From a virus, in UHGV virus genome UHGV-0038492: a stretch of DNA of 64,000 bases; one strand, written 5' to 3'. Shown here one piece after another: positions 26,665 to 51,278 of the stretch. The position numbers and the translations under genes were made by a program. How positions within the stretch are numbered: the stretch's first letter is position 1; the number at the start of each line of letters is the position of its first letter. The notes under the pieces are model-generated. The model worked only from the letters and a program-made list of their open reading frames with translations. It made no database searches and was not told the DNA's origin.

Positions 26665-27228
26665 GTGGCCACATCTTACGTACCTGATTTGAGTCTGACC
26701 TCAGCAGAGCTAGTGGTCGCTTTAATCAATCATGATAACGGGTTACAGCTTACACTAAACGAAATCCGTATTAGCGGAACTGTAACAAACCCATCCCCAA
26801 CAACTTCGCGACGTAACACTATCACCGAAATCAGTAAAATCAGAAAACCAGATGGTGCGTCTGTTGTGGTTTACTACGACAGACTTGACGCCGATGAGGT
26901 ATTAACGTCCGAACCTATTTTGATTTCGTTAGACGGTACCGAAGCGAACATTCGTGATGTGCTTAGTGTTGTAAATGAATACTGCGGTACGAATTTACAA
27001 CCTGAGGACTTACGTGCCTCAGATATTACTTCAGGTAATGATCCTATTGCTATTAACGTTGCTGACGATTCTCCTGCCTGGATGAATGCGTTTATGGTGA
27101 CGTTGTTTGATAAAACCGAACGTGCGTTAGCGAACGAAGAAGATGAAATCTTCTGCATCGGTGACGATAGCGTTCTTACATTCGAGGTTACAGATGGCGA
27201 CAGCACTGAAGAAGACGAGACTCCATGA
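26665..27228 (+). CDS. tail-fibre-associated protein, member of a six-gene paralog family (paralog of 36829..37341)
   Basis: GTG start after GGAGGG; N-terminus PDLSLTS...NHD and C-terminal NEYCGTNLQPEDL shared with 36829. Confidence 0.6.
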   Translation: MATSYVPDLSLTSAELVVALINHDNGLQLTLNEIRISGTVTNPSPTTSRRNTITEISKIRKPDGASVVVYYDRLDADEVLTSEPILISLDGTEANIRDVLSVVNEYCGTNLQPEDLRASDITSGNDPIAINVADDSPAWMNAFMVTLFDKTERALANEEDEIFCIGDDSVLTFEVTDGDSTEEDETP

Positions 27229-27655
27229 GCTCGAAAGCTACGCAGGCACACCCCAAGGCGGGGTACTGCTGTATAGCAAAGACAATAAAGAATATAAAAT
27301 TGATGTTGATAAGTTAGCCCCGGTTGCGACAGTCACCACGGTTAACGGTTCGAATAATGCCGCCACGTTGGATTTCAATACCAGCACTGACATTATTCTG
27401 GTGTTAAACGATCCTAACACTACAGTGACGTTCGCAGCCCTTACCAACGTTGCAGAAAATACCCGTTTCGAAGTAATGCTAACGATTAAGCAAGGAACAG
27501 GGGCGAATAAAGTAACCTGGCCTGAAAACGTTAAATGGCCTCACGGTGCACAACCGGTTTTATCCTACGCGGCAAATGCGGAAGACACTCTGTCGCTTTA
27601 TACCCTTGATGGGGGTGCCACCTGGAAAGGTTCTCTTCTTGCAGCGGGTTACTAA
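27194..27655 (+). CDS. short fibre protein carrying the conserved fibre N-terminal domain
   Basis: N-terminus LKKTRLHELESYAGTPQGGVLLYSKDNKEYK matches the N-termini of 30743 and 37344. Confidence 0.55.
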   Translation: MATALKKTRLHELESYAGTPQGGVLLYSKDNKEYKIDVDKLAPVATVTTVNGSNNAATLDFNTSTDIILVLNDPNTTVTFAALTNVAENTRFEVMLTIKQGTGANKVTWPENVKWPHGAQPVLSYAANAEDTLSLYTLDGGATWKGSLLAAGY

Positions 27656-30600
27656 ATGAGAAAACATTTTCAGCGTCACGCGATTAGCTACGCGTTATCG
27701 TTAGCTTACGGACACCAATCCTTCGTTACCCGGAATACGGGAACGACTCACGACGCGCACAACGAACACTATATTCAAAACGAAGAAGGTGTTCTGTCGA
27801 ATAACCGTCATTTCATTGCTGACACTATGGCGGAATACCAACCGAACGGGGATGCGACGACCGAGGGTCAGTCGTTACACGTTATTGGTTACTGCCACAT
27901 GTATATCGCGACGAAAGACGAAAGATGGTTAGATGCGGCGAAACGTGCCTGGGATGCGTACAACACGTACTTCTACGTCGGACAACCTATTCCGACCACA
28001 CCCCAGCGTCGTATTTGTAACTGGTTGGTAAACGGGAAAGAACCGGTATTAGCACATTATCCAATACATCCTACAGAACCTACCCAAGGTGGGTATAAAA
28101 GCGTTCCTGTAAGGTTTACAAACGGACAGTGTAAAATACCGCATGGTGCACCGTTCTGGGGAGAGTATTTGGATACCTTTACGTTTGCGCATCGTGGTCA
28201 CCCTGCCTGGGAAGCCATTAACGCAGACGTACAGATTATCAAGGAAGACAAAGAAGGGTCAATTAATTGGGAAGATGTTTTAACTCACGTTATTACCAAT
28301 CCTGATAAACCCTACGAGGCCAAAGCGTGGGTTGATTGGCCTACGTTATTAAACAACGCTACAGGGTACACCCCGCTTTGGGGTGGGAGCGCAACAAAAG
28401 CCCCTAAACACGACGTTGACTGGATAATTGCCTGGACAGGTAACAAAATCCAGGACAGTGAGATTATTGAAACAGGATTAGCAGATGCTGATAAAGGTAC
28501 CGTACAGTTAAAAGACACGCAGTTAAACGGTGTCTATTTGATTAACTACGCGGTAAAACTGCCTGTCGAACACGGTGGTTACGAGTTTAAACGTAACGAA
28601 CCGTGGCACAACCGTCCAGTTCACACGCCGTTCTTAGGATCGAAAAACCAATACGGTAACGCCGCTGATGCTGAACTGTGGTTTATTGACGCCTGTTATT
28701 TGCTGTGGCGAATCACGGGTGAAGAGAAATACAAACAAGCATTAGACTGTACTTTCTACACAGCACACGAGTACACGTATATTGATGCGGTAGATAAATT
28801 CTTCCGTCGTTCTACCGCTGCGGAAACACCGTTTACGGACGGCATTTCGTACGACTTCAATTACCCGGACACCGTAAGTGCTACATACGGCCGTGATGAG
28901 AATGGGGATATTACCATCCATGTGCCTGAAGCGGCACAACACTTTATGGAGCAGAAAGCGGTTCGATTCAGGATTAACAAAGACTCCAAACTACGTGTCA
29001 CGTACGGCGGGGTTTGTAAGAACGGCGATCCTGTCTACTGTAAAGCAATGGTAAACATTAACCCTGTGAAAGCTGATACCGAGGAAGTAAACTGGTACGG
29101 TTTAACTTTACCTCGGTCTACGGTAAATACCGTTAAGCAGTACGATGTTGACTTAGGCCAACTTGCCCGTATTAGCACCCCAGAAGGGGAAGATTACCTG
29201 ATAGCTGATGACCGTGCGTGTTCGGACTATGGTGGTTGTACGTGGGAAGAACGTTTTGAGGACAGCATTTACGACGGTCGCGCGGGTACCGTTATAGAAG
29301 CTGAATTTCCTGATGACGGTGCCGGGTTTATTATCGGGTTCTGGTTAACCGCTGAAGAGAAGGTAAAACCGGTTTCTATTGTCTACCGTGCGGACGCAGA
29401 TTTTAACCTGCGTTTAGCTGACAGCGATAAGTGGCGTTGGTGGTGGATGTTACCCAACACAAACAACGAATGGCGTCAGGTAACGTTAAATCCGGATGAT
29501 GCCACACTTTCCAGTTATCAGCCGGACCACACAGACGACGACCCTAAACCGGCAGCGCCGAATTTCGATAAGGTGGATCAGGTCACGATTCTCCCTGACT
29601 CTACGGTTGACCATGCGCACTTTGCTTACTATTGTGTTAACGATGTTCCACCGCTCTTTAATAAAGACGACGGTTATATTCTCACCTTCCGTATTGGGTT
29701 ACGCGGCGGTGGAGAGTTTGATGCGAAGGTCGGCGACTGTACGATCAAAGATTACCGTTTGGATTCGTTAGCGTATTGTCCGGGTACGATACCGTTCTCG
29801 AACAACTATTCAGAAGGTTCAGAACAGTTAGGTGCTTGGCACGGGATGCCTTATCCGGGTTATCAGTATCCGTTTATGTACACTATCCACAAAGACGACC
29901 GGTATAAGCTGTGGTTAGATAACCAGATTCAATTCATGTACGATTCGCAGTTGGCTTACCAACGGCAGCTCGGTGAATTAGGGCCTGGTTGTGCAGCTTA
30001 TATTTGGAACCGTTGGGACAACTACACCTACGGAGAAGCGGATACCTGGACAACGTTCCATTGGAGCGACGACCATCCGTGGCCAGGGTATCAACCTCGT
30101 GCGTTTCATGCTGCGTGTCGTTGCTGGTACGAACTGAAACTAAGAGGTAAAGAGGTTCCTGAAGCGTTAACAAGCTATATTGAAAACTGGGTGAATTGGC
30201 TAGGTGGGTTTGTGGATCGGTTTAACGGACACACCCCTAACGAGTTTCCTACAGCACCGAATAAACCCGTTTGGGTGGAAGATGACTTCAACGCACATAT
30301 GTGTGCGTTGTGGTTAGCAGGCTGTTGTTGGGCATTACTCGCTGGTGCAACGAATCCGAACTACGATAAGGTAGTTAATGCGGCAATTAAGGAGTTAGGT
30401 GAAGGGTTTACGATTACCTCAATTCCGAATAAGCCGATTAACGGGGCGTGGTCTCCAGCCGCTCGAGAGTCTTCCGATAACGGTATGGCTTTTGGGTTCT
30501 ACAGTGGGGAAGCGTTCCGTGCGTTAGGTCTCTACGTTACTTACAAAACTTACGGAGCCAACGCTAATATTTATCGTGACTTAGCGATTACTGACCACAG

Positions 30601-30742: not shown

Positions 30743-33700
30743 ATGGCAAAAGCGGTAAAGAAAATACGATTACATAATCTTAGACCATATACCGGTGATA
30801 TCGGTGAAGGCGTTTTACTTTTCTCCAAGGATGAGAAAGATTATAAGTTACCAGTCCGTGAGATCATTGCGGATATTGACACCGTACGTAATGCGGTGGC
30901 TGAAGCACAGACAGCAGCAACACAATCACAAGAAGCTGCAACTCAGGCTACACAAGCAAAGAATTTAGCAGAAACAGCAAAACAACAAACTGACACCGTT
31001 GCAGCTACGGTTGCTCAACAAGCGCAAACTGTAACCGAAAAAGCAACTGAAGTCGGTACAAAACACACTGAAGTGTTAGCCGCGAAAACTGCGGTAGACG
31101 AAGTATCAGTGTCGGTGAATGAGAAGGCTCAAGCTGTCGCCGCAAGCGAACAATCGGTGACGGCTGCTGCGGCTGATGTAACTAAGAAAGCAGAAACGGT
31201 TGCGCAACAGGCCGGACAAGTTCAACAGACGGCTACCAGCGTCGCAAATACTGCGGCATCAGTTGAGGCCAGTAAAGGTGCAGTGGAGAAAATTGCTGCG
31301 CAGGTCACGAAAGATAAAGAAACGTCGGAGGGCGCGGCTACCCGCTCAGAAGCGGCCGCACAACGTGCTGAGAAAATCGCCGCCCAAGGCTTAGTTGACG
31401 CTAGTACGATCGGTAAAGGCATCGTTAAACTTAACGATACCCTGACTAGTGAATCCGTGACGGAGGCTGCCACGCCGTCCACGGTTAAACAGCTGAACGA
31501 CGAATTACAGTTAAAAGCCAATAAACATTCGCCGAATTTTACGGGTAAACCGACATCCCCAAAACCGCCGAAGGACTCGAATGACACGAGCATCTCCACA
31601 ACGTCCTGGGTGCGTGACGCGATTGCTGAATTGGTTGGTTCCTCACCCGAGACGTTAAATACCTTAGCGGAATTAGCAGAGGCGTTAGGTAATGACCCTA
31701 ACTTCGCAACAACGATCACTGAGGAGCTTGCGCAGAAGCAACCTATCAGCCCATTACTCACCGCAATCGCTGCGGTTACAAGTGCAGCAAACAAACTCCT
31801 GTATTTCACGGGCTCTAATAAAGTCGAGTTAACCGATTTTACAGAAACTGCCAGATCCTTGTTAGCGAAAGGGTCAACTGCGGATATTATTAACTTCCTG
31901 GGTTTGAAACCCACCGTTGATAAAGCAAACGGCGCACTACAGAAAAACTCTAACGGTGCTGATATCCCAAATAAAGAAACTTTTGCTCGCAACATCGGCC
32001 TATCTCCTGATACCTATCTGCGTTTCCGTGGCAAAATGCCTGTAGATGCTGATATTAACACATTTGCTCCAGATGCTAATTACACAGGAACGTGGTCTAA
32101 GTCGACATCAACCAATGCGTCGATGGCAAAACACTTCCCAGAAGACGGTGCAGTCGGTTATCTGGAAGTGTATAAAGCGGGCAACTACAGTGGCGCGCAA
32201 CGTTTTACCTGTCGTAATGGTAACGTGTACAACCGTATGTTGTCAGCCGCGTGGAACGGAACTAATGGCCCGTGGTCGCCGTGGAGAATGGTAACTACCG
32301 GTGTACGCCCGTTATCTACATCGATTGATCTGAACTCTTTAGGCGGTGCCGAACACATGGGTAACTGGCGTAACTCGTCCAGTTCGTTAGCGGTGTTTGA
32401 CAGACATTATCCTGAAGAGGGCGGTGGCGCTCAAGGTGTTCTGGAAGTCATGGAAGGTGGTCTTTACGGACGGTTGCAGCGATACACTACGCGTCGTGGC
32501 ACAATGTATGTCCGTGGTTTGACTGCAACATGGGATTCATCAAACCCACAATGGGAAGATTGGATTCAGGTTGGTTATCAGACTGACGGTGCTTTCTTTA
32601 AAGCCAATTTTAACGATCTCGTTAAACCGGGTCGTTTCAGTGTCACTGGTCAGGCAACTAACGGCCCACTTACCGGTTCTTCTGGCGAAACCATATTAGG
32701 CGTTTGTGAAGTTACCTTACGCTTAGACGGTACAGGGGTCGAACAGAATTATACCACATACGGCACGGGTGCAGAAACTAAAGGTCGTAAATTCCAACGT
32801 ATCCGTACGGGTAACATTTGGAGCGATTGGCGTGAGGTTTTCACATCCTATTCGCTTCCGTTGGCCTTAGGTATCGGTGGGGTTGCTGCCAAGGTCGATC
32901 CGTTAGACTGGCAAACCTTCGACTTCGTTCCTGGCCAGATGATAAGCACACCGTTGAATACCATGAAAAACATTCCTGCGGGAATGGATTGGGGTGTTAT
33001 TGACGGTAACTTGGTCACTATTCTTGTAGGGGCGTCGGAGGACACCGGTACTGGTCGGAGTATGTTGGTCTGGCGTGGTACAGTGTCTACTGCTAACTAT
33101 CGCTTCTTTGCAGTACGTATCGCCGGTGAGAAGGGTAGCCGTACGATTACGCCACGACAGATGCCTGTGTTAAATGCAGCACACACTTGGGCCGAGAAAC
33201 AAACGTTCTCTAAAGGCTTAGCGGGTGAATTGACAGGTAATGCGTCAACGGCAACGAAACTGAAAACAGCCCGTTTAATCGGTGGTGTAAGTTTCGACGG
33301 CACTAGCGACATTCCACTCCCTGGTGTTAACCAGCAAGGTAATCAAAACACCACTGGGAACGCGGGAACCGCAACCAAATTACAAACGGCTCGAAACATC
33401 AACGGTGTGAAATTCGATGGCTCTAGAGACATCAATATCAACACCTTGGTAGGACGTGGACGTGTTACTGCACTGACGGGATCAAACAAAGGTACGCCTG
33501 GTATTCAGATGTACGAAGTTTACAATAACGGTTATCCGACCGCTTATGGTAACTTATTGCATTTGGGTGGTGCTACTGCGCTAGGCGAAGGCGAGTTGTT
33601 AATCGGATGGTCGGGGACGAGTGGTGCGCACGCGCCAGTTTATATTCGTAGCCGACGTGATACGGCTGACGCGCCGTGGTCAGATTGGGCACAAGTTTAT

Positions 33701-35302
33701 ACTGCCCGTGACAGCATTCCTGGCGTAAATGCCACAGGTAATCAAGATACTACCGGCAATGCCGCTACCGCGACGAAACTGAAAACCGCTCGCAGAATTG
33801 GAGGCGTTACCTTTGACGGTACTGGGGATATCAATTTACCGGGGGTTAACCAAGCCGGTAACCAGAATACGTCAGGTAATGCTGCGACAGCGACTAAACT
33901 TCAGACTGCGCGAAATATAGGCGGTGTGGCTTTTGATGGTACTAAAGACATCAGTTTACCTGGTGTAAACCAGACGGGTAATCAGTCGACTACCGGAAAC
34001 GCAGCCACGGCCACAAAGTTGCAGACAGCTCGTACCATTAACGGTATCCCATTTGACGGCACTAGAAATATATCGTTAGGGCCTGCCGATATAGGTTGCC
34101 CGGCATCACCTAGTGGTTGGTTAGAAACTGGCGCTGATGGCGCTGCAATAACTACAGCACAGCTAGTGACGTTATTGAAAAATAACGGCGCGTTTACCAC
34201 AAGATCGTGGGTTGCTCGCTGCGCATGGGCTTATGCCGCTAGTGCAAGTATACCTCATAGCGAGACGGGTTGTGGTGTTATTCCATTAGCTGGGGCTGTT
34301 ATAGAAGTGATTAGTAACGGCAACAGCACAAACAACTACACGATCCGTATAACGACCGCCACAACGACGAGCGTCTCCGGCGCACTCACTAATGCGGAGT
34401 TTATCTACGTATTTAACGGCGATACTTACTCACCAGGTTGGCGTCGCGTGTACAATACGAGAAACAAGCCAACTGCTGCGGATGTTGGGGCGTTGCCATT
34501 ATCTGGCGGTCAGTTGAATGGCGCGTTGGGTATTGGAACCACTAATGCTTTAGGTGGGAACTCCATAGTTTTAGGGGATAATGACACCGGCCTTAAGCAG
34601 AACGGGGATGGCGTTCTAGATGTTTACGCCAATAATGCTCATGTTTTACGCTTTACGAGTGGGGCTGTTCAAAGCAATAAACCTCTCAACGTTACCGGAG
34701 ATATAAGAACCAATACTTGGGTTTATGCAAATAGATATTCTATTAACAGCAACTCAGGTTCTTGGATTAGCATGAGAGACCATAACGTTATTTTTGGTCT
34801 TAATCCGGTAGGAACTAGTTCTGCTCAGGCATTGTTAAGACAAGACCATGCTGATAGGAAATTTTTTGTTGGTGGTTTAGGTAACTATCAATTCGGCTTT
34901 TACATGATAAACAACTCACGTACTGATAATGGCACCGATGCTAATGCTTATTTGCAAAACGACGGTACTTGGGTTTGTGGTGGGAACGGTAACTTTAACG
35001 ACGTTTATATACGATCTGACGCCCGGCTGAAAAGTAATTTCTCTCCAATAACTAATGCATTGGAGAAGGTAAAGGAATTGTCAGGTTTAATATACGACAA
35101 AAAGGAGAACTTTAAATCCACTAATGTTCATCGTGAGGCTGGTGTTGTAGCGCAGACCTTACAAAAAGTGTTACCTGAAGCAGTTTCTACTTATAAAGAC
35201 GCTAATGGTGAGGACGTTTTGACGGTCTCTAACTCTGCACAAATAGCTCTACTTATTGAAGCAATAAAGGAGTTGGCGGAGATAATTGAGACCAAGTTAT
35301 AA
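30743..35302 (+). CDS. long tail fibre protein with Phage_fiber_2-type repeats and a C-terminal intramolecular chaperone (S74-like) domain
   Basis: N-terminal Ala/Gln-rich coiled-coil; six GNAATATKLQTAR-x-I-x-GV-x-FDG repeats; C-terminal IRS-DARLKSNF autocleavage motif. Confidence 0.8.
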   Translation: MAKAVKKIRLHNLRPYTGDIGEGVLLFSKDEKDYKLPVREIIADIDTVRNAVAEAQTAATQSQEAATQATQAKNLAETAKQQTDTVAATVAQQAQTVTEKATEVGTKHTEVLAAKTAVDEVSVSVNEKAQAVAASEQSVTAAAADVTKKAETVAQQAGQVQQTATSVANTAASVEASKGAVEKIAAQVTKDKETSEGAATRSEAAAQRAEKIAAQGLVDASTIGKGIVKLNDTLTSESVTEAATPSTVKQLNDELQLKANKHSPNFTGKPTSPKPPKDSNDTSISTTSWVRDAIAELVGSSPETLNTLAELAEALGNDPNFATTITEELAQKQPISPLLTAIAAVTSAANKLLYFTGSNKVELTDFTETARSLLAKGSTADIINFLGLKPTVDKANGALQKNSNGADIPNKETFARNIGLSPDTYLRFRGKMPVDADINTFAPDANYTGTWSKSTSTNASMAKHFPEDGAVGYLEVYKAGNYSGAQRFTCRNGNVYNRMLSAAWNGTNGPWSPWRMVTTGVRPLSTSIDLNSLGGAEHMGNWRNSSSSLAVFDRHYPEEGGGAQGVLEVMEGGLYGRLQRYTTRRGTMYVRGLTATWDSSNPQWEDWIQVGYQTDGAFFKANFNDLVKPGRFSVTGQATNGPLTGSSGETILGVCEVTLRLDGTGVEQNYTTYGTGAETKGRKFQRIRTGNIWSDWREVFTSYSLPLALGIGGVAAKVDPLDWQTFDFVPGQMISTPLNTMKNIPAGMDWGVIDGNLVTILVGASEDTGTGRSMLVWRGTVSTANYRFFAVRIAGEKGSRTITPRQMPVLNAAHTWAEKQTFSKGLAGELTGNASTATKLKTARLIGGVSFDGTSDIPLPGVNQQGNQNTTGNAGTATKLQTARNINGVKFDGSRDININTLVGRGRVTALTGSNKGTPGIQMYEVYNNGYPTAYGNLLHLGGATALGEGELLIGWSGTSGAHAPVYIRSRRDTADAPWSDWAQVYTARDSIPGVNATGNQDTTGNAATATKLKTARRIGGVTFDGTGDINLPGVNQAGNQNTSGNAATATKLQTARNIGGVAFDGTKDISLPGVNQTGNQSTTGNAATATKLQTARTINGIPFDGTRNISLGPADIGCPASPSGWLETGADGAAITTAQLVTLLKNNGAFTTRSWVARCAWAYAASASIPHSETGCGVIPLAGAVIEVISNGNSTNNYTIRITTATTTSVSGALTNAEFIYVFNGDTYSPGWRRVYNTRNKPTAADVGALPLSGGQLNGALGIGTTNALGGNSIVLGDNDTGLKQNGDGVLDVYANNAHVLRFTSGAVQSNKPLNVTGDIRTNTWVYANRYSINSNSGSWISMRDHNVIFGLNPVGTSSAQALLRQDHADRKFFVGGLGNYQFGFYMINNSRTDNGTDANAYLQNDGTWVCGGNGNFNDVYIRSDARLKSNFSPITNALEKVKELSGLIYDKKENFKSTNVHREAGVVAQTLQKVLPEAVSTYKDANGEDVLTVSNSAQIALLIEAIKELAEIIETKL
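33230..33440 (+). repeat. intragenic fibre repeats (two copies)
   Basis: GNASTATKLKTARLIGGVSFDG / GNAGTATKLQTARNINGVKFDG. Confidence 0.7.
33724..34078 (+). repeat. intragenic fibre repeats (three copies)
   Basis: three consecutive ~40-aa units GNQxTxGNAATATKL(K/Q)TAR..G..FDGT.DI.LPGVNQ. Confidence 0.7.
35017..35299 (+). other. intramolecular chaperone / autoproteolytic domain at the fibre C-terminus
   Basis: S-DARLK motif at the domain start followed by ~95 residues. Confidence 0.65.
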
Positions 35303-35349
35303 TTATCAGTGAGGGGTTCCCCCTCACTGACTCACAAGTACGTTATAAG

Positions 35350-36828: not shown

Positions 36829-37341
36829 GTGGAACAATTCACGCCAGATTTGTCGTTAACTTCACTTAACATGGTTATTTCACTGGTTAACCATGACCTC
36901 CAGCTTGACTTGCAAGAGAACGAGGTTGAAGTCAGCGACGTAAAGACCAGTAACGAAATGGATCGTGACACCACTGCTGTTGTAAAGATAAAACGTCCCG
37001 GTAACAGAACGTTACAAATCTATTACAACCGTTTAACCGCAGAACGTTGGTTAAACCAGCAACCTATTCTGGTGCAAGTAACTGGAGAGGGGTTTAACAC
37101 ACACGATTTAATCGATGCGATTAACGCAGCCTGTGGTAGTAACCTGCAACCCGAAGATCTTCAGGACGATTCATTTACAGTAGGAAAAGACGCTGTAACG
37201 TTACAGGTATCACCTAACTCCCTAAGTTATAAAGGCCAATTCTCTGTTTTGGTTTTTGGTAACGGCGAAGAGGCCGCAGTAACAAAAGATGACAACCTAA
37301 TCGTTACCGCAGATAATCGCGTCTTAACCTTTGGAGGTTAA
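36829..37341 (+). CDS. tail-fibre-associated protein, paralog of 26665..27228
   Basis: GTG start after AGGAGGT; shared PDLSLTS and NAACGSNLQPEDL motifs. Confidence 0.6.
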   Translation: MEQFTPDLSLTSLNMVISLVNHDLQLDLQENEVEVSDVKTSNEMDRDTTAVVKIKRPGNRTLQIYYNRLTAERWLNQQPILVQVTGEGFNTHDLIDAINAACGSNLQPEDLQDDSFTVGKDAVTLQVSPNSLSYKGQFSVLVFGNGEEAAVTKDDNLIVTADNRVLTFGG

Positions 37342-37343: not shown

Positions 37344-37964
37344 GTGGCTGAACTGGTAGGAAAGGTACGCATTCACGAGCTACCGTCACTTTCAGAAGAC
37401 ATTACTGGTGTGGTGGTGTTAGCGTCTAAGGAACAAACCGAATACCAACTCCCGATTGAGAATTTAGGGGGTGGTGAGGTTACAGTGAGTCCGTCAGCGA
37501 ATAACATCCTTAAGTCTAACAGCGATGGACTGTTTGTTGATGGCGCACATCCTATTGTACCGAAAATGGATGCAAAAACCTTATCGGGAAATATGGTGGT
37601 AGAAAAAACGCTGACAGGTGGTGCGGTAATCTGCAAAACAACGGTTGACGTTAATAATAGGCTGGGGATTTCGCAATTATCTGGGGTGTCAATTTATAGC
37701 CAGTGCCTGCTGGAAAATAAATTGGTTTACCTGGCAGAAGACGGCAGTATTATTGATGCGTACTTCTACATTAGTAATACAAAGAACACGGCCAGTACAA
37801 TAACCCACACCATTCGGGTTGTCTTAGCGAAAGTACCTTCTAAAGTTGTCGATATCACCGATTTATCTGAAACTGAGGTGCAGTATCAGGATGCTAATTT
37901 GCCTGTTAAGATCGTTATTAAGCATCTTACAGGGACAACACTTTCCCAGAACGGAATGAAATAA
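37344..37964 (+). CDS. short fibre protein with the conserved fibre N-terminal domain
   Basis: N-terminus VGKVRIHELPSLSEDITGVVVLASKEQTEYQ; GTG start after GGAGG. Confidence 0.55.
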   Translation: MAELVGKVRIHELPSLSEDITGVVVLASKEQTEYQLPIENLGGGEVTVSPSANNILKSNSDGLFVDGAHPIVPKMDAKTLSGNMVVEKTLTGGAVICKTTVDVNNRLGISQLSGVSIYSQCLLENKLVYLAEDGSIIDAYFYISNTKNTASTITHTIRVVLAKVPSKVVDITDLSETEVQYQDANLPVKIVIKHLTGTTLSQNGMK

Positions 37965-40838: not shown

Positions 40839-40840
40839 AA

Positions 40841-42446: not shown

Positions 42447-42496
42447 TCAGATATATATTACCTAGGTGAGAGTTCAGCTACTCTCACTTAACTAAA
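42447..42496 (+). promoter_or_regulatory. promoter-like motif TCAGATATATATTACCTAG plus hairpin plus TTAACTAAA
   Basis: exact motif copy; hairpin gtgagagt-tcagct-actctcac. Confidence 0.45.
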
Positions 42497-42516
42497 CCAT
42501 TTTAGGAGCATATACC

Positions 42517-43011
42517 ATGAACTTCACTAGACTTGATTACACTAACGAATTAGTTGACAAAGAAAAATACAAATTCACCGTTGATTTGGGTTACGGATTA
42601 CTGGACGTAGAAAAAGATGTTCTGCACAAAGAATTCCGTGAGCAGTTCGGTGCTTTGTTCTGCGCAGGTTTCCGCAGAAACACTATTGATATCGGCTATA
42701 GCGCAACAGCGTATACCGACGAAGAAATGTTTAAGCTGGTAACACAGATTGTCGGAACGCGTGGAGCCAAACGACTCAACTATTCCAATGAGCTTGTTTC
42801 GAAAGAACATTACAAGTTCACCGTTAGACTACCTGTTCACCTCACAGAAGAAGATAAGAACATCCTCTATAAAGCTCTTCAAACCGAATTCGGTAAAACG
42901 CTCAAAGTAGGGTTCCGTAGTCGTAGTATCGACATCGGGATTAGTGTAGACGTATGCAGTGACGATGACCTTTACGAACTAGTTTCGGAAGTTATCGGAA
43001 AACATCTTTAA
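42517..43011 (+). CDS. hypothetical protein made of two tandem ~80-aa repeats
   Basis: halves RLDYTNELVDKEKYKFTV... and RLNYSNELVSKEHYKFTV... align. Confidence 0.6.
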   Translation: MNFTRLDYTNELVDKEKYKFTVDLGYGLLDVEKDVLHKEFREQFGALFCAGFRRNTIDIGYSATAYTDEEMFKLVTQIVGTRGAKRLNYSNELVSKEHYKFTVRLPVHLTEEDKNILYKALQTEFGKTLKVGFRSRSIDIGISVDVCSDDDLYELVSEVIGKHL

Positions 43012-43055
43012 CGTAAATTAACACTTCGACTTGTAAATCTAAAAGGAAAAATAAA

Positions 43056-43847
43056 ATGGCTACTTTAACTATTGCTAATACTCTTACTCCTCGTAAAATG
43101 AAACGTCTTACGACTTTTATCTCTCGCTGCACACCTAGCGTCAAATTGGAAACGACCTCTGACAAAATCACGTTTTGGACTTATAGTGACGTAGAACTTG
43201 AAACTGTGAAAGGGTTTGTTAATGGGCTAGTTGAAAATACCGCATCATCGCTCGTTATTAGCTTCACTAGCGAAAATAGCGAGATGAACGAAGCAACAAT
43301 TTCGGATGCAATCTATTACGCGACTGGCAATAATTTTGATACCGCCGACAGACTTAATCTTTCTAATAACCTTTGTAAAATCGACGACAAGACTTACATC
43401 CTATATTTTAATAGTCCGTTCCCACAAATCGGAGGTTTTAAACATTATCTTTCAATGAAACCTATCTTGGGTATAGAAGTTTTCTCTACGGATCTTGAAG
43501 ACAATGTACAGCTAAACCGTATTCGTTATCGCGGTAAACGTCCAACCGAAACAGATTCTGAATACGGTGCTTGTGCTGAATATATTCTGGTTCATAAAGA
43601 TCGCTTCGCTTACTACAACCAAGACGATATTGAACGTCTTGTAGAAGCCGTCAATTTATACACTCGTGATTTTGCATTCCGATTGGTTTATAACACTTAT
43701 CCGAATGGTGTAACGGCTTTCTATATCCCTCCCTACCTTTTCGACAAGGTTTATTGTATTCTGTCTAAAGAACTGGAAAAAATTAAACCGGTTTTCGTGG
43801 GCGAAGACGCTATGGCTTATATCAGGAGTGGTGCTAATGTCCTCTAA
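43056..43847 (+). CDS. hypothetical protein
   Basis: 263-codon ORF. Confidence 0.6.
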   Translation: MATLTIANTLTPRKMKRLTTFISRCTPSVKLETTSDKITFWTYSDVELETVKGFVNGLVENTASSLVISFTSENSEMNEATISDAIYYATGNNFDTADRLNLSNNLCKIDDKTYILYFNSPFPQIGGFKHYLSMKPILGIEVFSTDLEDNVQLNRIRYRGKRPTETDSEYGACAEYILVHKDRFAYYNQDDIERLVEAVNLYTRDFAFRLVYNTYPNGVTAFYIPPYLFDKVYCILSKELEKIKPVFVGEDAMAYIRSGANVL

Positions 43848-44268
43848 ACTTAAAGATGAATTGCGTGATTACATTCGTAAATACCCAGCCAGTATTCCGG
43901 TACTGGCTTCACTCTCTTTATCGGGTATGGACCTTAATACCTTAACGGTAGAAAAATTCCACGAAGTGGTAAAATCGTCGTATCAAATTGTTACCGATAT
44001 GTCAGTGCGGAAACGTGCTGACTACCCAGACGGTGATTTCGGTACAGAGATGTTCACAGACTACGCAGTTGCGTATCTGATGGGACGTCACTTTATCGAT
44101 AAGCTCAATACAGCTGTAGAAGGAGAAACCGTTACGGAAATTGTCAATGCTTGGCAACAACGTATTGTGAGTGACGCTTACTGTCGTCAAGCCTTAAAGA
44201 AAATGTCGGCGGTAGCATTAACCAACGACCAACGTGCTTTAGAGTTCCTTAAGCACAATTACGAATAA
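43837..44268 (+). CDS. hypothetical protein, paralog of 45532..45963
   Basis: LKDELRDYIRKYPASIPVLA vs LKDDIRNYIRNNPIALGVLA; ATG at 43837 after AGGAG. Confidence 0.55.
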   Translation: MSSKLKDELRDYIRKYPASIPVLASLSLSGMDLNTLTVEKFHEVVKSSYQIVTDMSVRKRADYPDGDFGTEMFTDYAVAYLMGRHFIDKLNTAVEGETVTEIVNAWQQRIVSDAYCRQALKKMSAVALTNDQRALEFLKHNYE

Positions 44269-44289
44269 TTTACCAAAAGGAAAAGTACC

Positions 44290-45462
44290 ATGTTTAATAT
44301 TGAGATTACACCGCTCGTTAAAACTGAAATCCGTCCGGTTCCTGAAGCACAGTTACTCGATCAACTTTATCGTATATTCCTGGATAAAGGTGTGCATTTC
44401 CGTGTAGAACAGGTCAATGACGAAAGCATCGTGTTCTACTGGACTCACAGCAACGATTATCTTTGCGATACTATCGCGAAAGAAATTGGTGAGTTGCTCA
44501 ACCCAGCAGCCACGAACGCCAAGGTAGAAACGACCGAGACTGAACAACCGAAAGTCGAAGAACAGCAGTGGCCTGAAACCAGCGCCGACAACCCGCTCGT
44601 CTATCGGTATGGTGCCGAAACGAATGAGAAAATTAAAGAAACATTAGAGGCTCTCTATCCTGATTATTTAACCATCAGTCAACAATGCGACGTGTTAGTT
44701 ATCTGGATGAATGATTTCGAACCCAAGCTCATTAAAGCTATTCGCATCACCGTTGCACTGATCGTCAAAGACGCCGTTCGCCTTATTTCGTTTGAAGGTA
44801 TCGGTCGACGTGACGCGGATGATTTCATGCGTGATGTCGTTCACGAACACAAGGAGAAAATTCTTCGGTCTAATTATGTTGGTGACACTCTAATTGTGCT
44901 TGTTGATAATGATCCCGTTATTATTAATCAGCTGAACATCCGTATGCGTAAGTTAACAAAGAAAATTTTTCTTAAAGGGGAGCAATCGCTTGAAGAGTCC
45001 AAAGTGTCTAAAGTCTTTACTTACACTGGTCCAGATGCCAAAGCGATTAACGATACTTTGGCAGCTTTCTATTCTAGCAAAGTAGAGACTAAACTCGAGG
45101 GCGAAGAACTCACCATTAAATGGAAATGGTGGGACATTGCTCTTGAAGAAGAAATTCATAGTCTTATTAAAGAGATTGTTGACAATCGTCTACGTCTTCT
45201 AACAATCACTACTATCGGTGGAGAAGATGCCGATGCGTTTATAAGCGGGGTTCTTCGCGCGTATCCTGAGAAAGTCCGTCAATGGACTTACAATGACGAT
45301 ACACTTATCATCCTGCTCAACTATGAACCTGGCCTTATTGGGAAATTGAAGGATCGTCTACGCGATCTGTGGTACAAACGATTTCTTAAGGATGGGTCGA
45401 AAGAGCTCATTAAACGATTGTTTTCTGATTGCAACTGTCCTATATGTCAGAAGCATCGCTAA
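44290..45462 (+). CDS. hypothetical protein with internal duplication and C-terminal CNCPIC motif
   Basis: repeats FEGIGRRDADDFMRDVV... and TIGGEDADAFISGVL... Confidence 0.6.
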   Translation: MFNIEITPLVKTEIRPVPEAQLLDQLYRIFLDKGVHFRVEQVNDESIVFYWTHSNDYLCDTIAKEIGELLNPAATNAKVETTETEQPKVEEQQWPETSADNPLVYRYGAETNEKIKETLEALYPDYLTISQQCDVLVIWMNDFEPKLIKAIRITVALIVKDAVRLISFEGIGRRDADDFMRDVVHEHKEKILRSNYVGDTLIVLVDNDPVIINQLNIRMRKLTKKIFLKGEQSLEESKVSKVFTYTGPDAKAINDTLAAFYSSKVETKLEGEELTIKWKWWDIALEEEIHSLIKEIVDNRLRLLTITTIGGEDADAFISGVLRAYPEKVRQWTYNDDTLIILLNYEPGLIGKLKDRLRDLWYKRFLKDGSKELIKRLFSDCNCPICQKHR

Positions 45463-45531
45463 TTAACTAAATTCGTACAAGGGGTGGTTTACCACCCCTC
45501 TATTATTGTATTTACCTAAAGGAGTATTAAA

Positions 45532-45963
45532 ATGTTTTTCGTATTAAAAGATGATATTCGTAACTACATTCGTAACAATCCGATTGCTCTAGGCGTTTTA
45601 GCAGGTTTCTGTCGTCCAAATACTGACTTCGATTTAGTTAAGTTAGAAGAATATCAAGAAATTGTGAATACTACCTACCTGCACATCTGTAGCTGGGGTA
45701 AACGTCCTCGTGAAGAGTACCCTGTGGGTGAGTTAGGTGACACCATGCACCGTGACCAGAATCTGATGCACGAATTCGTTGAATACACACTGGAAAATCT
45801 TAACTATCCGCTCCTGGTCGACACTGTACCAGAAATGGTTGACGAATGGTTAAAACGTGTTTATAGCGATCCTACCGCCAACAAGTTACTGAGCCAGATG
45901 TCACAAACTTCTCGTGACATCGACACTCGTACGCTGATGTACTTAGCACATAATGTTCGCTAA
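45532..45963 (+). CDS. hypothetical protein, paralog of 43837..44268
   Basis: AAAGGAG upstream of ATG. Confidence 0.6.
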   Translation: MFFVLKDDIRNYIRNNPIALGVLAGFCRPNTDFDLVKLEEYQEIVNTTYLHICSWGKRPREEYPVGELGDTMHRDQNLMHEFVEYTLENLNYPLLVDTVPEMVDEWLKRVYSDPTANKLLSQMSQTSRDIDTRTLMYLAHNVR

Positions 45964-45969
45964 CCTCTT

Positions 45970-46030
45970 TCCGCTATAGGCTTCGGTCTATAGCGGAATT
46001 AATTTTCTTCCCCTTTTCTTTTTTTGTTAT
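45970..46030 (+). terminator. intrinsic terminator
   Basis: hairpin ccgctatag-gcttcggtc-tatagcgg followed by T-rich tract. Confidence 0.55.
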
Positions 46031-46130
46031 TTTGACACCACTTTACTTACACCCTACCCGACTATTCCTATGCTGGCTGAGGGATGTAAAACGACCTCTT
46101 AAACCTTTTTACTTACTGTGAGTTAACGCG

Positions 46131-46979
46131 ATGTCTCTTACGTCAAAACAGAAACTGCTAAAACTCATCAACACTGAAAACAATATTATTCCACCGTTGA
46201 CTTTCAGTGATGTTGAAATCGGGGAACCTACCGGTACTGGGGTTGATACCCAGGTGGTTCTGACCTCTAAACTTAAAGGCGATGAGTCTACTACTTTAAC
46301 AGTGACTTACCACCGTCGTAACTTACCTGACTACCTAACCGGTGAGTTGGTATTCGGTAACGACAGTGTGGTAACCGCATCAGATTTGCTTAATGCGATT
46401 AACGCAAAATACAACCTAAATATTTTACCCTCGGATATCGTTGACGCAAAAGTTGAAGGCGAAACCCATCAGCTTACCGCTAACGAGAAATCTTACGAGT
46501 GGTGCGGTGTAGTAACGCTTACGCTGCGCGATCCTATTGACCTGACTGAACTGTTACCGGTTACTCAATTAGAGAATCTGGTAGAGTATCCGTCCACGAA
46601 GAAAGGTAACGCGGCGGTTTATTCTCACCCGATTGATTTCACCGCAGAAAAAGATTACCTTGACCCGATTACTATCAACGACGCTGTAGACTTGGTAGAA
46701 TTAGCTACTAAACTGGATAGCGTCGTTGACGAGAAATGGGTAAGCGTACCTAAGAACGCGGCTAACAACCTGTACGGAGCGAAGATTATTTACGATGGTC
46801 CAACCGCAGGTTACGAAGGCGCAAATACGAAGTTCACTCGTGTGTTGGTGCTAACACTCAGCCCGCTGTGTTCTAACCTGACCGGTAACCTGTTAATTCA
46901 CTTTAACGGGACCGATCGTCCGAAGTCGAAGATTGAATTAGCACAGACTAATCCGGTCTTACCGGGATTCTTAGATTAA
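46131..46979 (+). CDS. member of the six-gene structural-protein paralog family
   Basis: DLLNAINAKYNLNILPSDIVD aligns with the NLQPEDL motif of 26665 and 36829. Confidence 0.55.
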   Translation: MSLTSKQKLLKLINTENNIIPPLTFSDVEIGEPTGTGVDTQVVLTSKLKGDESTTLTVTYHRRNLPDYLTGELVFGNDSVVTASDLLNAINAKYNLNILPSDIVDAKVEGETHQLTANEKSYEWCGVVTLTLRDPIDLTELLPVTQLENLVEYPSTKKGNAAVYSHPIDFTAEKDYLDPITINDAVDLVELATKLDSVVDEKWVSVPKNAANNLYGAKIIYDGPTAGYEGANTKFTRVLVLTLSPLCSNLTGNLLIHFNGTDRPKSKIELAQTNPVLPGFLD

Positions 46980-46992
46980 GAGGATTACAGTA

Positions 46993-47472
46993 ATGGCCAA
47001 TCAAGAAACTATCTTCGACCTTATTAAAAAGGCTAACCCGGACGCTGAGTTCGACACCACCAAAGTCACACTGGGTGAACCGGTTGTGACCACCGGTACT
47101 TACAATACCGAAATTACGGTTGCGTCGATTAAGAATCTCGGTTATGTTAATAAGCAAACGTTCCAGTATAACCGCATTGACGCAGGTTTGTATTTCCTGA
47201 ACGTATTACCGAAATTGTTGGTAGAATCTGCAACGACTACCGCTGACTTACTGCCCGTCATTAACGAGCAGTACAGCCTAACCCTTACAGAAGACGACGT
47301 GTGGGTAGAACAGGTTGGTGAGTTACCGTTAGACGGTAGCGCAATCGAACACGGTATTTTCTTCCGTCCTGAGTGTCTGACCTGGGTTGGTGGTTTTACA
47401 GTGCGTGTTGCGCGTAAACCGGCTGACGCCACACCGCCAAAGACGGCGTCTCGCGCTAAAAAGAAAAAATAA
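46993..47472 (+). CDS. member of the six-gene paralog family; Lys-rich C-terminus
   Basis: ADLLPVINEQYSLTLTEDDV motif; N-terminus parallels 46131. Confidence 0.55.
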   Translation: MANQETIFDLIKKANPDAEFDTTKVTLGEPVVTTGTYNTEITVASIKNLGYVNKQTFQYNRIDAGLYFLNVLPKLLVESATTTADLLPVINEQYSLTLTEDDVWVEQVGELPLDGSAIEHGIFFRPECLTWVGGFTVRVARKPADATPPKTASRAKKKK

Positions 47473-47476
47473 TCAC

Positions 47477-47511
47477 AGGGTGGGGTAATCCCCACCCTCT
47501 TTTCTTTTTTG
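47477..47511 (+). terminator. intrinsic terminator
   Basis: hairpin agggtgggg-taat-ccccaccct plus T-run. Confidence 0.7.
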
Positions 47512-47534
47512 TGTAAAATAGGAGTTAAACGAAA

Positions 47535-48125
47535 ATGGCCGAACGTTGGACTAAAGAAGGTATTATTGAATCCAAAACCGATTTGGAAGGTGGGTACGTC
47601 AACGACCCTGACGACAAAGGTGGAGAAACCTGTCACGGGGTAACACTGACAACTGCACGCGAATACGGGTACAAAGGAAGAATGAAAGATCTGACCCGTG
47701 CGCAAGCGTTTGACATTTACGATCGTGGTTGGTGGAAGAAACTTAAACTCGATGAGATTTTCGCTATCTCGCCGATACTCGCCGACCGGATGTTTGATTT
47801 TGCTATTAACTCTGGCCGTGTTAACTGTGTGAAGTCATTACAACGTATTCTCAACGTTTTAAATAACGAAGGGAAACTTTACGCAGATATTGACACCGAC
47901 GGTGGTATGGGACCTAAAACACTAGGTGCTCTGAATGCTTATCTAAATTACCGTAAAGGCGAGGGATTAGGCATCTTAATCTTTGCGTTAATCTCACACC
48001 AGGTAACCTACTACACGGAAATCTCCGAAAAGCGTAAGAAGAATGAAAAATTCGCTTACGGCTGGTACGGACGTGTGTACAGGGAAATGCCGGATTATGT
48101 AGTGAAGGCGGGGTTAGTAAAATGA
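47535..48125 (+). CDS. endolysin: GH108-type lysozyme-like domain with C-terminal peptidoglycan-binding region
   Basis: N-terminal LEGGYVNDPDDKGGETCHGVT matches the GH108 signature; C-terminal GPKTLGALNAYL fits a PG_binding_3-type region. Confidence 0.7.
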   Translation: MAERWTKEGIIESKTDLEGGYVNDPDDKGGETCHGVTLTTAREYGYKGRMKDLTRAQAFDIYDRGWWKKLKLDEIFAISPILADRMFDFAINSGRVNCVKSLQRILNVLNNEGKLYADIDTDGGMGPKTLGALNAYLNYRKGEGLGILIFALISHQVTYYTEISEKRKKNEKFAYGWYGRVYREMPDYVVKAGLVK

Positions 48126-48226
48126 ATTGGTTTGCTAAACTCTTAGCGTTATTGTGGAAAGCGTTAACGTCTGGTCGAAAACGTAAAGACGAAAAACGTG
48201 GGCAAGAATTCTTCTGGTTTTTGTAA
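48122..48226 (+). CDS. possible 34-aa peptide overlapping the endolysin stop (not in the ORF track)
   Basis: ATGA overlap; MNWFAKLLALLWKALTSGRKRKDEKRGQEFFWFL is hydrophobic/amphipathic then basic. Confidence 0.25.
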   Translation: MNWFAKLLALLWKALTSGRKRKDEKRGQEFFWFL

Positions 48227-48241
48227 GGAAAGGTGTGGGTA

Positions 48242-48907
48242 ATGGAAAAGCTTCAATATAAACGTTTAGATGATAAGTGGTTTGTATTAACGGAGGATTA
48301 CCATTATCCGTTTACGTTACGTGAGATTTATCACGACCACGTACACTTAGACCGTGCGGTTTATTTAACCGGTGTATTACCTGACACGCAACTGTGGTTA
48401 ACCGCTCCGAAAGGGTTCGTAACGGACTTAGCGTCGATACCCGAACACTTACAGGGAATTTTCCATCCTGACGGGCCTTGGGCACCGGCTGCGTGTATTC
48501 ACGACTTGTTATACCAGAAATGCAGTACGGAACGTAGCTACCCTATGACGCCCGGTGGAAACGTTTCTCGCATTATCGATAAAGAGTTCGCTGACTTAAC
48601 GTTTCTGCGTATTATGCAGTCGTTAGAAATCTCACCGTATATCTGCCAAACGTTTTATAAAGCCGTTGTAGGATTCGGTTGGGATGCTTACGTAGACCCT
48701 AACGCGAAACCGTCTTATACCACTAACGACTACCGTACGTTAGATTACAATCGAAACTATTTGTTCGTTCGCGAGTTTAAGGAGCCTGCTATTCCTGACC
48801 ACGAACGAGTTGATATCACCACAGGTTGTCCCGTTAATGTCAAATACCTGAACATTAAACGGGCTTTTCTGTCTGGGAGGGAAGATGTTTCATCCAAATC
48901 CGAGTAA
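48242..48907 (+). CDS. hypothetical protein
   Basis: ATG at 48242 after AAGGAAAGG; the track start at 48233 is GTG. Confidence 0.55.
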   Translation: MEKLQYKRLDDKWFVLTEDYHYPFTLREIYHDHVHLDRAVYLTGVLPDTQLWLTAPKGFVTDLASIPEHLQGIFHPDGPWAPAACIHDLLYQKCSTERSYPMTPGGNVSRIIDKEFADLTFLRIMQSLEISPYICQTFYKAVVGFGWDAYVDPNAKPSYTTNDYRTLDYNRNYLFVREFKEPAIPDHERVDITTGCPVNVKYLNIKRAFLSGREDVSSKSE

Positions 48908-49400
48908 CTTTAAAATCAAAGAGTTAGTACCGCAATCGTACATCACCAAATACGGTGATTCTGCAATTCGGTTTATGAACCCGCTGTTAATGATTTCGCT
49001 ACAGCAGATTCGTAACCGTTTCGGCAGAATGGTAATTAACTCGTCTGCTGCGCAACAACGTGGTTTAAGAACCTTAGACTTTTTCATCAACCAAGAAAAG
49101 CCTAAGGGTGGTAACTATAAACAACGTGCTTTACAACTCTATTCCGATTCAGGAAGTCAGCACAAGTTCGGTAACGCGTTCGACGCAACATTGTTAGATT
49201 CAACGGTAAAACAAGTCCACGATTACATCGCCGCCAATCCTGATGAGTTTCCGTTTATTCACTTTATTGAATGCGACATCAGTTGGTTACATATCGATGT
49301 TCGTAACCAACCGAATATCACGTTCTGGTCACCGAATCGGGGTACTGTGAAAGTCGCGAAACAAAGCCCTATCGATTGGAGCGCCTTAGTTAAAATCTAA
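48885..49400 (+). CDS. peptidase M15-like zinc metallopeptidase (peptidoglycan peptidase type)
   Basis: SQHKFGNAFDAT fits the SxHxxGxAxD zinc-binding motif and a later WLHIDVR fits the second His motif; GGGAGGG upstream. Confidence 0.5.
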   Translation: MFHPNPSNFKIKELVPQSYITKYGDSAIRFMNPLLMISLQQIRNRFGRMVINSSAAQQRGLRTLDFFINQEKPKGGNYKQRALQLYSDSGSQHKFGNAFDATLLDSTVKQVHDYIAANPDEFPFIHFIECDISWLHIDVRNQPNITFWSPNRGTVKVAKQSPIDWSALVKI

Positions 49401-49493
49401 GCGCATATTCCTTAACTTAGGGTGATTGTACCTTATTTTGTATAAACCGTCTTAGAACGCGTTCTAGCGCGCTCTACGGACAAAATAAACCTA

Positions 49494-49524
49494 CCCTCCT
49501 GCTTAGCAGGAGGGTATTTATTAT
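49494..49524. terminator. bidirectional terminator between convergent genes
   Basis: hairpin ccctcctgc-ttag-caggaggg plus T-rich tail. Confidence 0.6.
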
Positions 49525-50000
49525 TCTACCGGGTGCAGCATAGTGCCGGTATCTGGAATGCTGCCTTCGTGACATCTGAAGAACGTTACACCTTTACCTT
49601 CACCTGTTTTGTAGTTGATGGTAGAATACGCAAACGTTGGGGTTTTCGACAGTAACCCGTTTACACGGTAATAGCGCTCACCGGTAACAACGTTTAAGTT
49701 ACCGTCCACTTTACCTAACAGGTCTTTATAAAGTTGCGGAGATTCAATTTTACCTTCGTCCCATGTAGCGACCCAATTCGCTCCTGTATCCATGACTAAC
49801 ACCGAAAGGGGCATCAGTTTTAGGCTAGACGGTACCGGTTTAAAATCAGCGAATTCTTGAGAAGCACCTGTACAGGTGTAAATGACCATATCGTGTTGGT
49901 CAACAGGTACGGTGGAGAACTGACCTTCTGCGTTCGGCTGAATAGCACAACTTGCCAATGTCATTACAAAAGCAACGACCACGAGAATGCGTTTTAGCAT
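49521..50000 (-). CDS. lipoprotein (signal peptide with lipobox LASC)
   Basis: ATG at 50000 after AAGGA; MLKRILVVVAFVMTLASCA; the track start at 50060 is TTG. Confidence 0.6.
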   Translation of the reverse strand: MLKRILVVVAFVMTLASCAIQPNAEGQFSTVPVDQHDMVIYTCTGASQEFADFKPVPSSLKLMPLSVLVMDTGANWVATWDEGKIESPQLYKDLLGKVDGNLNVVTGERYYRVNGLLSKTPTFAYSTINYKTGEGKGVTFFRCHEGSIPDTGTMLHPVE

Positions 50001-50139
50001 AATCTCATCCTTATTAAAATTAAGAAAAATTAATTTTTTCAGGTTAGCGCTTACTGCCAACCGTCATATCTATATTTTAGGAAATGTCTAAAATAACATT
50101 CTTATGCAATCCACCCCTGCCACTTACGAGGTAAAAACG

Positions 50140-50676
50140 ATGGCTAAAGCCTTCAAACAGCAGCTCATCGAAGCTGTAATTGCTAAAAACTCAGAAACCG
50201 CTTCTAATCTGACGGTTGCTGATGTTGATTTTGGCGCTGTTGCTGAGTTCAGCGGAGACGCTGGCCGCAACACTAAAATTACCCTGACCGCCAAGGCAGA
50301 AAGCCAGAACTTCAAAGGCGAGAAAGAATTCCACTACATTCGTCTGGCTTCTCAAGACCTGATCGGTGCTAAAGCTTACGAACAAGCCGGTAGCCTCGAT
50401 CTGGAAAACTCTGCCATTGTAACCAAACTGAACGAAGAAATGGTTACTAAAGGTTATGTCGATGACGAGTTTGCAGAGAGCGAACTGTCCATTGAGAAAT
50501 CCGAAGGCGACAGCGGTGCTAAAGTTTACACTGTCAAAGTAAGCGAAGGTCACATCAAATTCCTGGCTGGTACCATTGCCACCTTCACTTATTCCAACCC
50601 AGCTCCTGAGAAGGTAGCACTGAGCGGTCTGGAAGGTGAACTTGATGGCTTCACTGCGCCGGGTGTCGGTGGCTAA
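50140..50676 (+). CDS. member of the six-gene paralog family (paralog of 50748..51278)
   Basis: GRNTKITLTAKAESQNFKGEKEFHYIRL and C-terminal GELDGFTA shared with the next gene; ATG at 50140 after GAGGT. Confidence 0.55.
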   Translation: MAKAFKQQLIEAVIAKNSETASNLTVADVDFGAVAEFSGDAGRNTKITLTAKAESQNFKGEKEFHYIRLASQDLIGAKAYEQAGSLDLENSAIVTKLNEEMVTKGYVDDEFAESELSIEKSEGDSGAKVYTVKVSEGHIKFLAGTIATFTYSNPAPEKVALSGLEGELDGFTAPGVGG

Positions 50677-50747
50677 GTAAGTTAAATCGGGGGGGGGGTG
50701 ACCTCCCCCGATATTTCTTTAACTCGTATTATTAAGGACCTAAGATA

Positions 50748-51278
50748 ATGGCCGCTACTAACCAGATGATGTTGGTCGCGCTTTATAATGCTGCTAACAC
50801 TGAGCTACCGCATCAGATTACAGATAAAGAAGTGTCCTTTGGTTTGCCTGCTGCGCTGGAAGGCGAAGGTAAGAATACCAAAGTTACCATGACCGCACTA
50901 CCGGGTTCTGAGAATTTCAAAGGCGAAATCGAACTGCATTACGATCGTCTGGAGCCAGGTGTTGTAGGACGGATTGAACTAACTGACGATCTGTCTCGCT
51001 GGGTTCAAGAAAATGAACTCCGTGCTTGGTTACAGTATTACATCAACAAAGTAAAACCTGACGACGCTATCGCACCAGGCGACGTTGTGTACAACACCGA
51101 AGACCAGAAAGACGAACATGAAAACGTCACTCTGCGTACCGTGACGTGCACCGTTACTGAAAAGAACCTCCGTTATAAACCAGGTGTAATGGCAACTTTC
51201 GTAATTACACCGAAGGTTGTCGATAATCGTATTGACCTGGCCACCACCAACGGTGAGTTGGACGGCTTTACTGCTTAA
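50748..51278 (+). CDS. member of the six-gene paralog family
   Basis: GKNTKVTMTALPGSENFKGEIELHYDRL; C-terminal NGELDGFTA. Confidence 0.55.
   Translation: MAATNQMMLVALYNAANTELPHQITDKEVSFGLPAALEGEGKNTKVTMTALPGSENFKGEIELHYDRLEPGVVGRIELTDDLSRWVQENELRAWLQYYINKVKPDDAIAPGDVVYNTEDQKDEHENVTLRTVTCTVTEKNLRYKPGVMATFVITPKVVDNRIDLATTNGELDGFTA

Follow-up and report, generated by a model that had tools for sequence, protein, structure and literature searches.

Seven genes in the window, by which we mean the whole 64,000-nucleotide stretch of the virus genome UHGV-0038492 that was analyzed, encode single-module DUF7941 proteins of the type known as paralog family B in the Salmonella jumbo phage SPN3US. They are listed here with their scores against the Pfam profile PF25613 (DUF7941) and their identities to SPN3US proteins, and are hereafter called by their start positions.

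6360..6914, + strand: seventh DUF7941 member, a single module with a LALDGF tail; 52.5 bits; phrog_2935, E 1.7e-50; 63% identity to SPN3US gp83
26665..27228, + strand: gp122-type DUF7941 single module with an IGDDSVLTF tail; 74 bits; 45% identity to gp122, syntenic
36829..37341, + strand: second gp122-type DUF7941 module with a DNRVLTF tail; 60 bits; 36% identity to 26665 and 31% to gp122
46131..46979, + strand: the sole long-form member, with an N-terminal domain, a linker, a C-terminal domain, and a lineage-specific C-terminal VLPGF tail; 176 bits; 45% identity to gp138
46993..47472, + strand: short member, an N-terminal domain followed by a lysine-rich tail; 99 bits; 37% identity to the N-terminal domain of gp141
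50140..50676, + strand: DUF7941 single module of the gp160 / Goslar gp23 type with a GELDGF tail; 32 bits; phrog_4862, E 8e-42; 46% identity to gp160
50748..51278, + strand: tandem paralog of 50140, also of the gp160 / gp23 type with a GELDGF tail; 37 bits; phrog_4862, E 6e-34; 31% identity to 50140 and 37% to gp160

The initial annotation had described the last six of these genes as a paralog family, and all six open reading frames (ORFs) were confirmed at their coordinates on the + strand. For the fifth gene, the ATG at 50140 (178 amino acids, aa) is the start used by most relatives, as against the ORF beginning at 50104. All six scores exceed the curated gathering threshold of PF25613 (27 bits; profile of 276 positions). 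Among these six, 46131 spans profile positions 5–275, whereas the other five match the N-terminal part alone, over at most about 150 positions. PHROGs 2935, 1037, and 3589, annotated as 'virion structural protein', and phrog_4862 cross-link the family genes. BLASTP within the window connects 26665 with 36829 (36% identity, E 6e-37) and 50104 with 50748 (31% identity, E 2e-17), the remaining members being tied by weaker links, and an iterated hidden Markov model (HMM) search within the window recovers every family member. The multiple alignment contains both motifs of the initial annotation, the N-terminal segment V-x-F/L-G-x-P...T...Y-x-R and the DL(L/I) motif; the Arg of Y-x-R and the Asp of P-x-D are invariant, and DLLxxIN...L.P.D is plain in four of the six genes and in 6360. 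Because of these profile scores, BLASTP and HMM links, and aligned motifs, the similarity is homology and not composition. A further HMM, made from 61 representatives with a single module, among them several close relatives of the window's own genes, finds exactly seven members in the window. The set of six was thus genuine but incomplete, since the certain seventh member at 6360–6914 lies outside the range 26665–51278 that it covered. The described layout also stands: 46131/46993 and 50140/50748 are adjacent pairs, and 26665 and 36829 flank fibre genes.

The window and SPN3US are collinear, gene for gene, over gp78 to gp169 of the latter, and the members are direct syntenic orthologues of family B proteins, with 31–63% identity. 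Family B of SPN3US comprises gp83, gp138–154, gp160/161, gp237, and the candidate gp122, and is possibly the largest paralog family of any phage (PMC5105663, PMC5694885). The SPN3US orthologues of the window members, except gp122, were detected in virions by mass spectrometry, gp141 and gp160 ranking with the most abundant virion proteins (PMC5694885). Our HMM confirms gp122 as a member. Since each subtype has its own SPN3US orthologue, the duplications are old. The two phages differ in copy number: the SPN3US array gp138–gp154 (17 contiguous genes, ~18 kb) is represented in the window by two genes, 46131 and 46993, whereas the gp122 and gp160 types are each present in two copies, unlike in SPN3US. 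Genome-wide, the HMM counts eight members in a complete 222-kb relative, the extra one being the gp237 orthologue, and at least 17 in SPN3US. Most of the difference in length between the syntenic regions stems from the contracted array (window 46131–47472 versus SPN3US 115393–133154). We also considered gp161 as a DUF7941 or family B member and rejected it: its orthologue in the window (51360–52031, minus strand) is a DUF4376 protein, and the HMM backs gp160. PMC5694885 is itself inconsistent on this point, placing gp161 in family B in the text and gp160 in the table. The family has thus been catalogued already, as DUF7941 in Pfam and as family B in SPN3US, and what is new is its members in an undescribed SPN3US-like jumbo phage lineage.

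The AlphaFold2 (AF2) model of 46131, computed from an 18-sequence alignment, shows an alpha/beta N-terminal domain in residues 1–135 (predicted local distance difference test, pLDDT, 80–90), with two helices packed on strands. A Foldseek search of this domain against the PDB gave one significant match, gp127 of phage phiKZ (9xqd_0, E 3.3e-5, target-normalised TM-score 0.60), and the domain has the fold of gp127 residues 1–150. For the C-terminal domain of 46131, a sequence alignment to residues 131–290 of gp127 (PDB 9xqd PHIKZ127) has an E-value of 2.5e-5; AF2 left this domain unmodelled, with pLDDT below 35 in a region covered by just three sequences. This second globular domain is confined to 46131 among the window members, as seen from the full PF25613 span and the gp127 alignment. 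All fold matches in BFVD come from jumbo phages. In phiKZ, gp127 is modelled in the outer peripheral baseplate (PMC13250141), and no other solved structure than this one (PDB 9XQD) has the fold, although its sequence identity to 46131 is just 16–17% and phiKZ is reported with about three members, compared with seven in the window.

The architecture of more distant relatives shows how these modules are joined. We searched 1.84 billion representative proteins with a profile of the seven paralogs and obtained 2410 relatives with E-values of 0.001 or less. Among the best 149 of these, 90 have one module (median length 177 aa), 45 have two (360 aa), and 10 have three (556 aa). Module starts are mostly 165–180 aa apart, and about 172 aa is also the size of the window's short members; because the spacing matches this length, a short window protein corresponds to one repeat unit of the tandem proteins. 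An LxG-hydrophobic motif, typically LDGF(V/I)Y, occurs both in the segments between modules and in the C-terminal tails of single-module proteins. It is found in 69% of 65 single-module tails (6% when shuffled) and in 52% of 66 inter-module linkers (10% when shuffled). In the AF2 model of the two-module relative P0083 (mean pLDDT 91.7), the linker is ordered (76–96) and the free C-terminal tail is not (60 down to 38). Conservation across 42 orthologues of 50140 is highest in the tail. The gene of a three-module relative is surrounded by large fibre-like genes and a DUF4376 gene. Going by these fused and split forms, beads that are joined covalently in some phages are likely connected without a covalent bond in others, the tail docking on the next bead.

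The tails of the window members fall into classes. The LDGF class comprises 6360, 50140, and 50748, and the IGDDxVLT(F/Y) class, which is common to SPN3US gp122, comprises 26665 and 36829. The tail of 46993 is lysine-rich and has no LxG-hydrophobic motif. In 46131, a variant of the linker follows the N-terminal domain, and the protein ends with an additional 'KIELAQTNPVLPGFLD', which is kept in relatives down to 80% identity and is absent from SPN3US gp138–144. The 46993 tail is rich in lysine and arginine both here (ASRAKKKK) and in a relative from Enterobacter ludwigii (KAAKARTTRARKSK); its binding target could be DNA or a cell surface of polyanionic character.

Recent work on two other jumbo phages bears on the function of these proteins. 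A 2026 preprint on Goslar (bioRxiv 10.64898/2026.04.21.720040) describes DUF7941 as a chimallivirus-specific, filament-forming module. It estimates ~2140 copies of gp23 and ~580 copies of gp22 per virion, reports that purified gp22 makes long filaments in vitro, presents AlphaFold 3 predictions of head-to-tail dimers for Goslar members, and proposes a baseplate-anchored 'fiber cloud'. Three Goslar members are fused there to carbohydrate-binding, glycoside-hydrolase, or leucine-rich repeat (LRR) domains. In the outer baseplate of phiKZ, each gp139 band terminates in one gp127 (PMC13250141). The window proteins share with Goslar gp22, gp23, and eight others the same domain above threshold. The long form 46131 is of the type of SPN3US gp138, phiKZ gp127, and Goslar gp22/33/34, and 50140 and 50748 have the short form of gp23, an N-terminal domain with a linker; 50140 matches gp23, and the LxxxxxxDGF tail of gp23 is also found on both window proteins. 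Unlike the Goslar set, all seven window members are single-module without a fused receptor-binding domain, the gp23-type gene is tandem-duplicated, and the long form has its additional C-terminal LPGF tail.

On balance, we favor the interpretation that the window members are virion proteins that form head-to-tail chains, probably tied to the baseplate and fibre apparatus. Each protein would be one bead, with an alpha/beta N-terminal domain of ~140 aa and a linker or tail of ~30 aa, and the tail of one bead would dock on the N-terminal domain of the next to give flexible head-to-tail chains. The equivalence of tail and linker supports the chain model independently of the predictions in the preprint. 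The chains would most likely be anchored at the outer baseplate, serving there as extensions of the host-recognition apparatus or as connections within it. In this model the paralogs, which are old, are not interchangeable, and their tails suggest three roles. Those with an L-x-G-F tail (6360, 50140, and 50748, together with the extra C-terminal tail of 46131) may act as chain extenders; 26665 and 36829, with an IGDDxVLTF tail and encoded beside fibre genes, may be a fibre-linked type; and 46993, with its lysine-rich tail, is a probable chain end. The initial annotation had suggested Ig-like decoration, hinge, or fibre-connector proteins. Its 'fibre-connector' comes near to the current model, which builds on the baseplate position of gp127 and the gp22 filaments. 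A true paralog family of virion-associated proteins, some encoded beside fibre genes, is likewise supported; the Ig-like part is not.

Several observations weigh against this interpretation. Goslar baseplate maps show no density for these proteins, and the phiKZ model holds just a single copy of one member. Relatives do not conserve the coupling between 36829 and 37344, the gene downstream of it, which is described below. Tailless DNA-filled particles of SPN3US contain family B proteins, which were classed as head or neck proteins that are possibly ejected (PMC5105663, PMC5694885), and 6360, of the gp83 type, adjoins the portal orthologue among head genes. Where the proteins sit in the particle is disputed, since SPN3US proteomics points to the head or neck and phiKZ cryo-EM to the baseplate.

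The finding in tailless particles and the position of 6360 belong to the main alternative, in which the proteins are internal to the head, packaged with the DNA in the capsid and possibly ejected into the host, as was proposed for SPN3US family B ('Head ejection?'). We regard this as unlikely. The tailless particles in question were purified from an SPN3US gene-64 amber mutant (PMC5105663), gp141 and gp160, both of which have orthologues in the window, are highly abundant in virions (PMC5694885), and the lysine-rich tail of 46993 could, from its residues, serve to bind DNA. However, filaments could co-purify with heads, and no family B protein is among the eight SPN3US head proteins reported to be cleaved by the prohead protease (PMC5694885). 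An internal location also fits poorly with phiKZ gp127, modelled in the outer baseplate (PMC13250141) and matched by 46131 in both N-terminal fold and C-terminal sequence, with the gp22 filaments and the carbohydrate-binding, hydrolase, or LRR domains of some relatives in the Goslar preprint, and with the encoding of tandem multi-module relatives among fibre genes.

A capsid or tail decoration by Ig-like proteins diversifying under positive selection would account for many small paralogs in the structural region, and 50140 orthologues indeed diverge faster (64% identity) than the neighbouring genes (90–99%). We consider this very improbable. The predicted N-terminal domain is alpha/beta, not an all-beta immunoglobulin-type sandwich, its sole solved match is gp127, and fold and domain searches of the family gave no significant Ig domain. 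Placement on the capsid shell is not reported in the accessible parts of PMC13250141 or bioRxiv 10.64898/2026.04.21.720040. Nor is the idea that repeated duplication reflects diversifying selection supported at the whole-gene level. Pairwise Nei-Gojobori ratios of nonsynonymous to synonymous substitution rates (dN/dS), calculated for whole genes against the diverged relative L009 and the close relative L012, are 0.06–0.23 for the family members and within the range of their neighbours. Even for 50140, the fastest-evolving member (0.23), a hypervariable patch was sought and none was found, the variation being evenly spread. The whole-gene dN/dS indicates purifying rather than diversifying selection, and the duplications are old. 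Finally, a merely compositional similarity with no true family has practically no probability left: some pairwise BLAST links are weak (46993 and 26665, E 2.2; 50104 and 46993, E 5.9), but every member lies above the curated Pfam threshold with composition correction, an SPN3US orthologue exists for each, and their predicted folds agree.

The neighbourhood of the two gp122-type members contains the following genes, none of which belongs to the family.

27194..27655, + strand: gp123 orthologue, first of three proteins with a common 42-aa N-terminal module
30743..35302, + strand: 1519-aa tail fibre with the shared N-terminal module, a Phage_fiber_2 repeat, and a C-terminal Peptidase_S74 chaperone
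35350-36141: full-length T-even-type Gp38 adhesin, 233 bits
36158-36670: Gp38_N-only protein
37344..37964, + strand: 206-aa protein with the shared N-terminal module, directly downstream of 36829 and absent from close relatives

The orthologues of the tail genes gp123 and gp124 follow immediately after 26665, and 36829 is the final gene of the cassette of fibre and Gp38 adhesin. SPN3US lacks the genes of 30743–36670 (fibre, Gp38 adhesin, and Gp38_N protein), which are typical of T-even phages. In relatives, 36829 and the cassette come and go as one: L012 and the E. ludwigii element have both, whereas L009–L011 have neither and carry a 710-aa protein and a DUF4376 protein in place of the cassette. 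From this distribution, the cassette looks like a swapped receptor-binding module. The 42-aa N-terminal module (consensus MA..VKK.RLHEL.SY.GD..GV.L.SKD.KEYKLP) is common to 27194, 30743, 37344, and SPN3US gp123, and is encoded in the window at 27194–27320, 30743–30870, and 37344–37470. It is probably a shared attachment peptide for differing distal domains, and its alignment suggests that the true start of ORF 27143–27655 is probably the ATG at 27194. A strict pairing of 36829 with 37344 was considered and rejected; close relatives retain 36829 without 37344.

A more specific, and in our judgment improbable, version of the chain model is that the paralogs are a construction set in which the tails dictate what is built. 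LDGF tails would extend the chain, IGDDxVLTF tails would couple it to the fibres with the 42-aa module (27194, 30743, and 37344), the lysine-rich 46993 would end it, and 46131, with its second, C-terminal LPGF tail, would branch or bridge chains and so replace the 17-gene array of SPN3US. If this were true, the natural occurrence of the bead in fused and in split form would amount to a code from which the layout of an accessory network of host-recognition filaments in jumbo phages could be read. Particles of jumbo phages are rich in this family; for Goslar gp22 and gp23, copy numbers in the hundreds to thousands are reported. The reduced set in the present lineage (eight genome-wide, compared with 17–21 in SPN3US) offers a simpler system for asking the role of each subtype, and the match of tail and linker provides a concrete residue motif for mutation. 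For annotation, DUF7941 virion proteins is preferable to Ig-like decoration proteins, and the seventh member, the array contraction, the tail/linker equivalence, and the tail classes are useful additions.

Similarity limited to the beginning of the module was seen in other proteins. One further gene of the window (11119..11781, + strand), the orthologue of SPN3US gp91, entered the family through the iterated in-window HMM alone. It has no Pfam PF25613 match and an hhalign probability of 5.5%, and SPN3US gp91 scores 19.5 bits over residues 1–80 with the 61-representative HMM. Its status as an eighth member of the window is doubtful, and at most the N-terminal sub-domain of ~70 aa is related. 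The first ~65 residues of the module are also matched by ~90-aa repeats of the lysine-/asparagine-rich, Mollicutes-like surface proteins P0115 and P0116, one of which ends in leucine-rich repeats. DUF7941 has been reported in Spiroplasma Spaid-like proteins in a 2026 paper (PMC13375240). Given these cellular matches in sequence, the N-terminal sub-domain may not be exclusive to phages. Residues 17–76 of 50104 also have a weak, sub-threshold match to the Spiralin domain (E 0.003).

Homologue searches with one sequence or with the seven-paralog alignment returned almost exclusively close relatives of the present lineage. A megablast of positions 44000–52000 against the phage collection gave no match, and the radical-SAM genes have 72.5% nucleotide identity to a deposited phage, so that nucleotide similarity to deposited phages is low. 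Along its entire length, the same 44000–52000 region has 88% identity to a circular record of 222,441 bp, NZ_CP134650.1, which is filed as a non-mobilizable 'plasmid' of E. ludwigii, and near-identical proteins are encoded on contigs of 220–227 kb labelled Salmonella enterica or E. coli. That this jumbo-phage lineage occurs inside assemblies of bacterial isolates may point to an SPN3US-like phage in a carrier state or in pseudolysogeny. Over 36000–56000, the synonymous divergence from L009 and L012 ranges from ~0.03 to more than 2 between adjacent genes, and 39394, 43056, 44290, and 51360–55692 are far more diverged than the genes next to them. This uneven divergence indicates mosaic recombination within the lineage.

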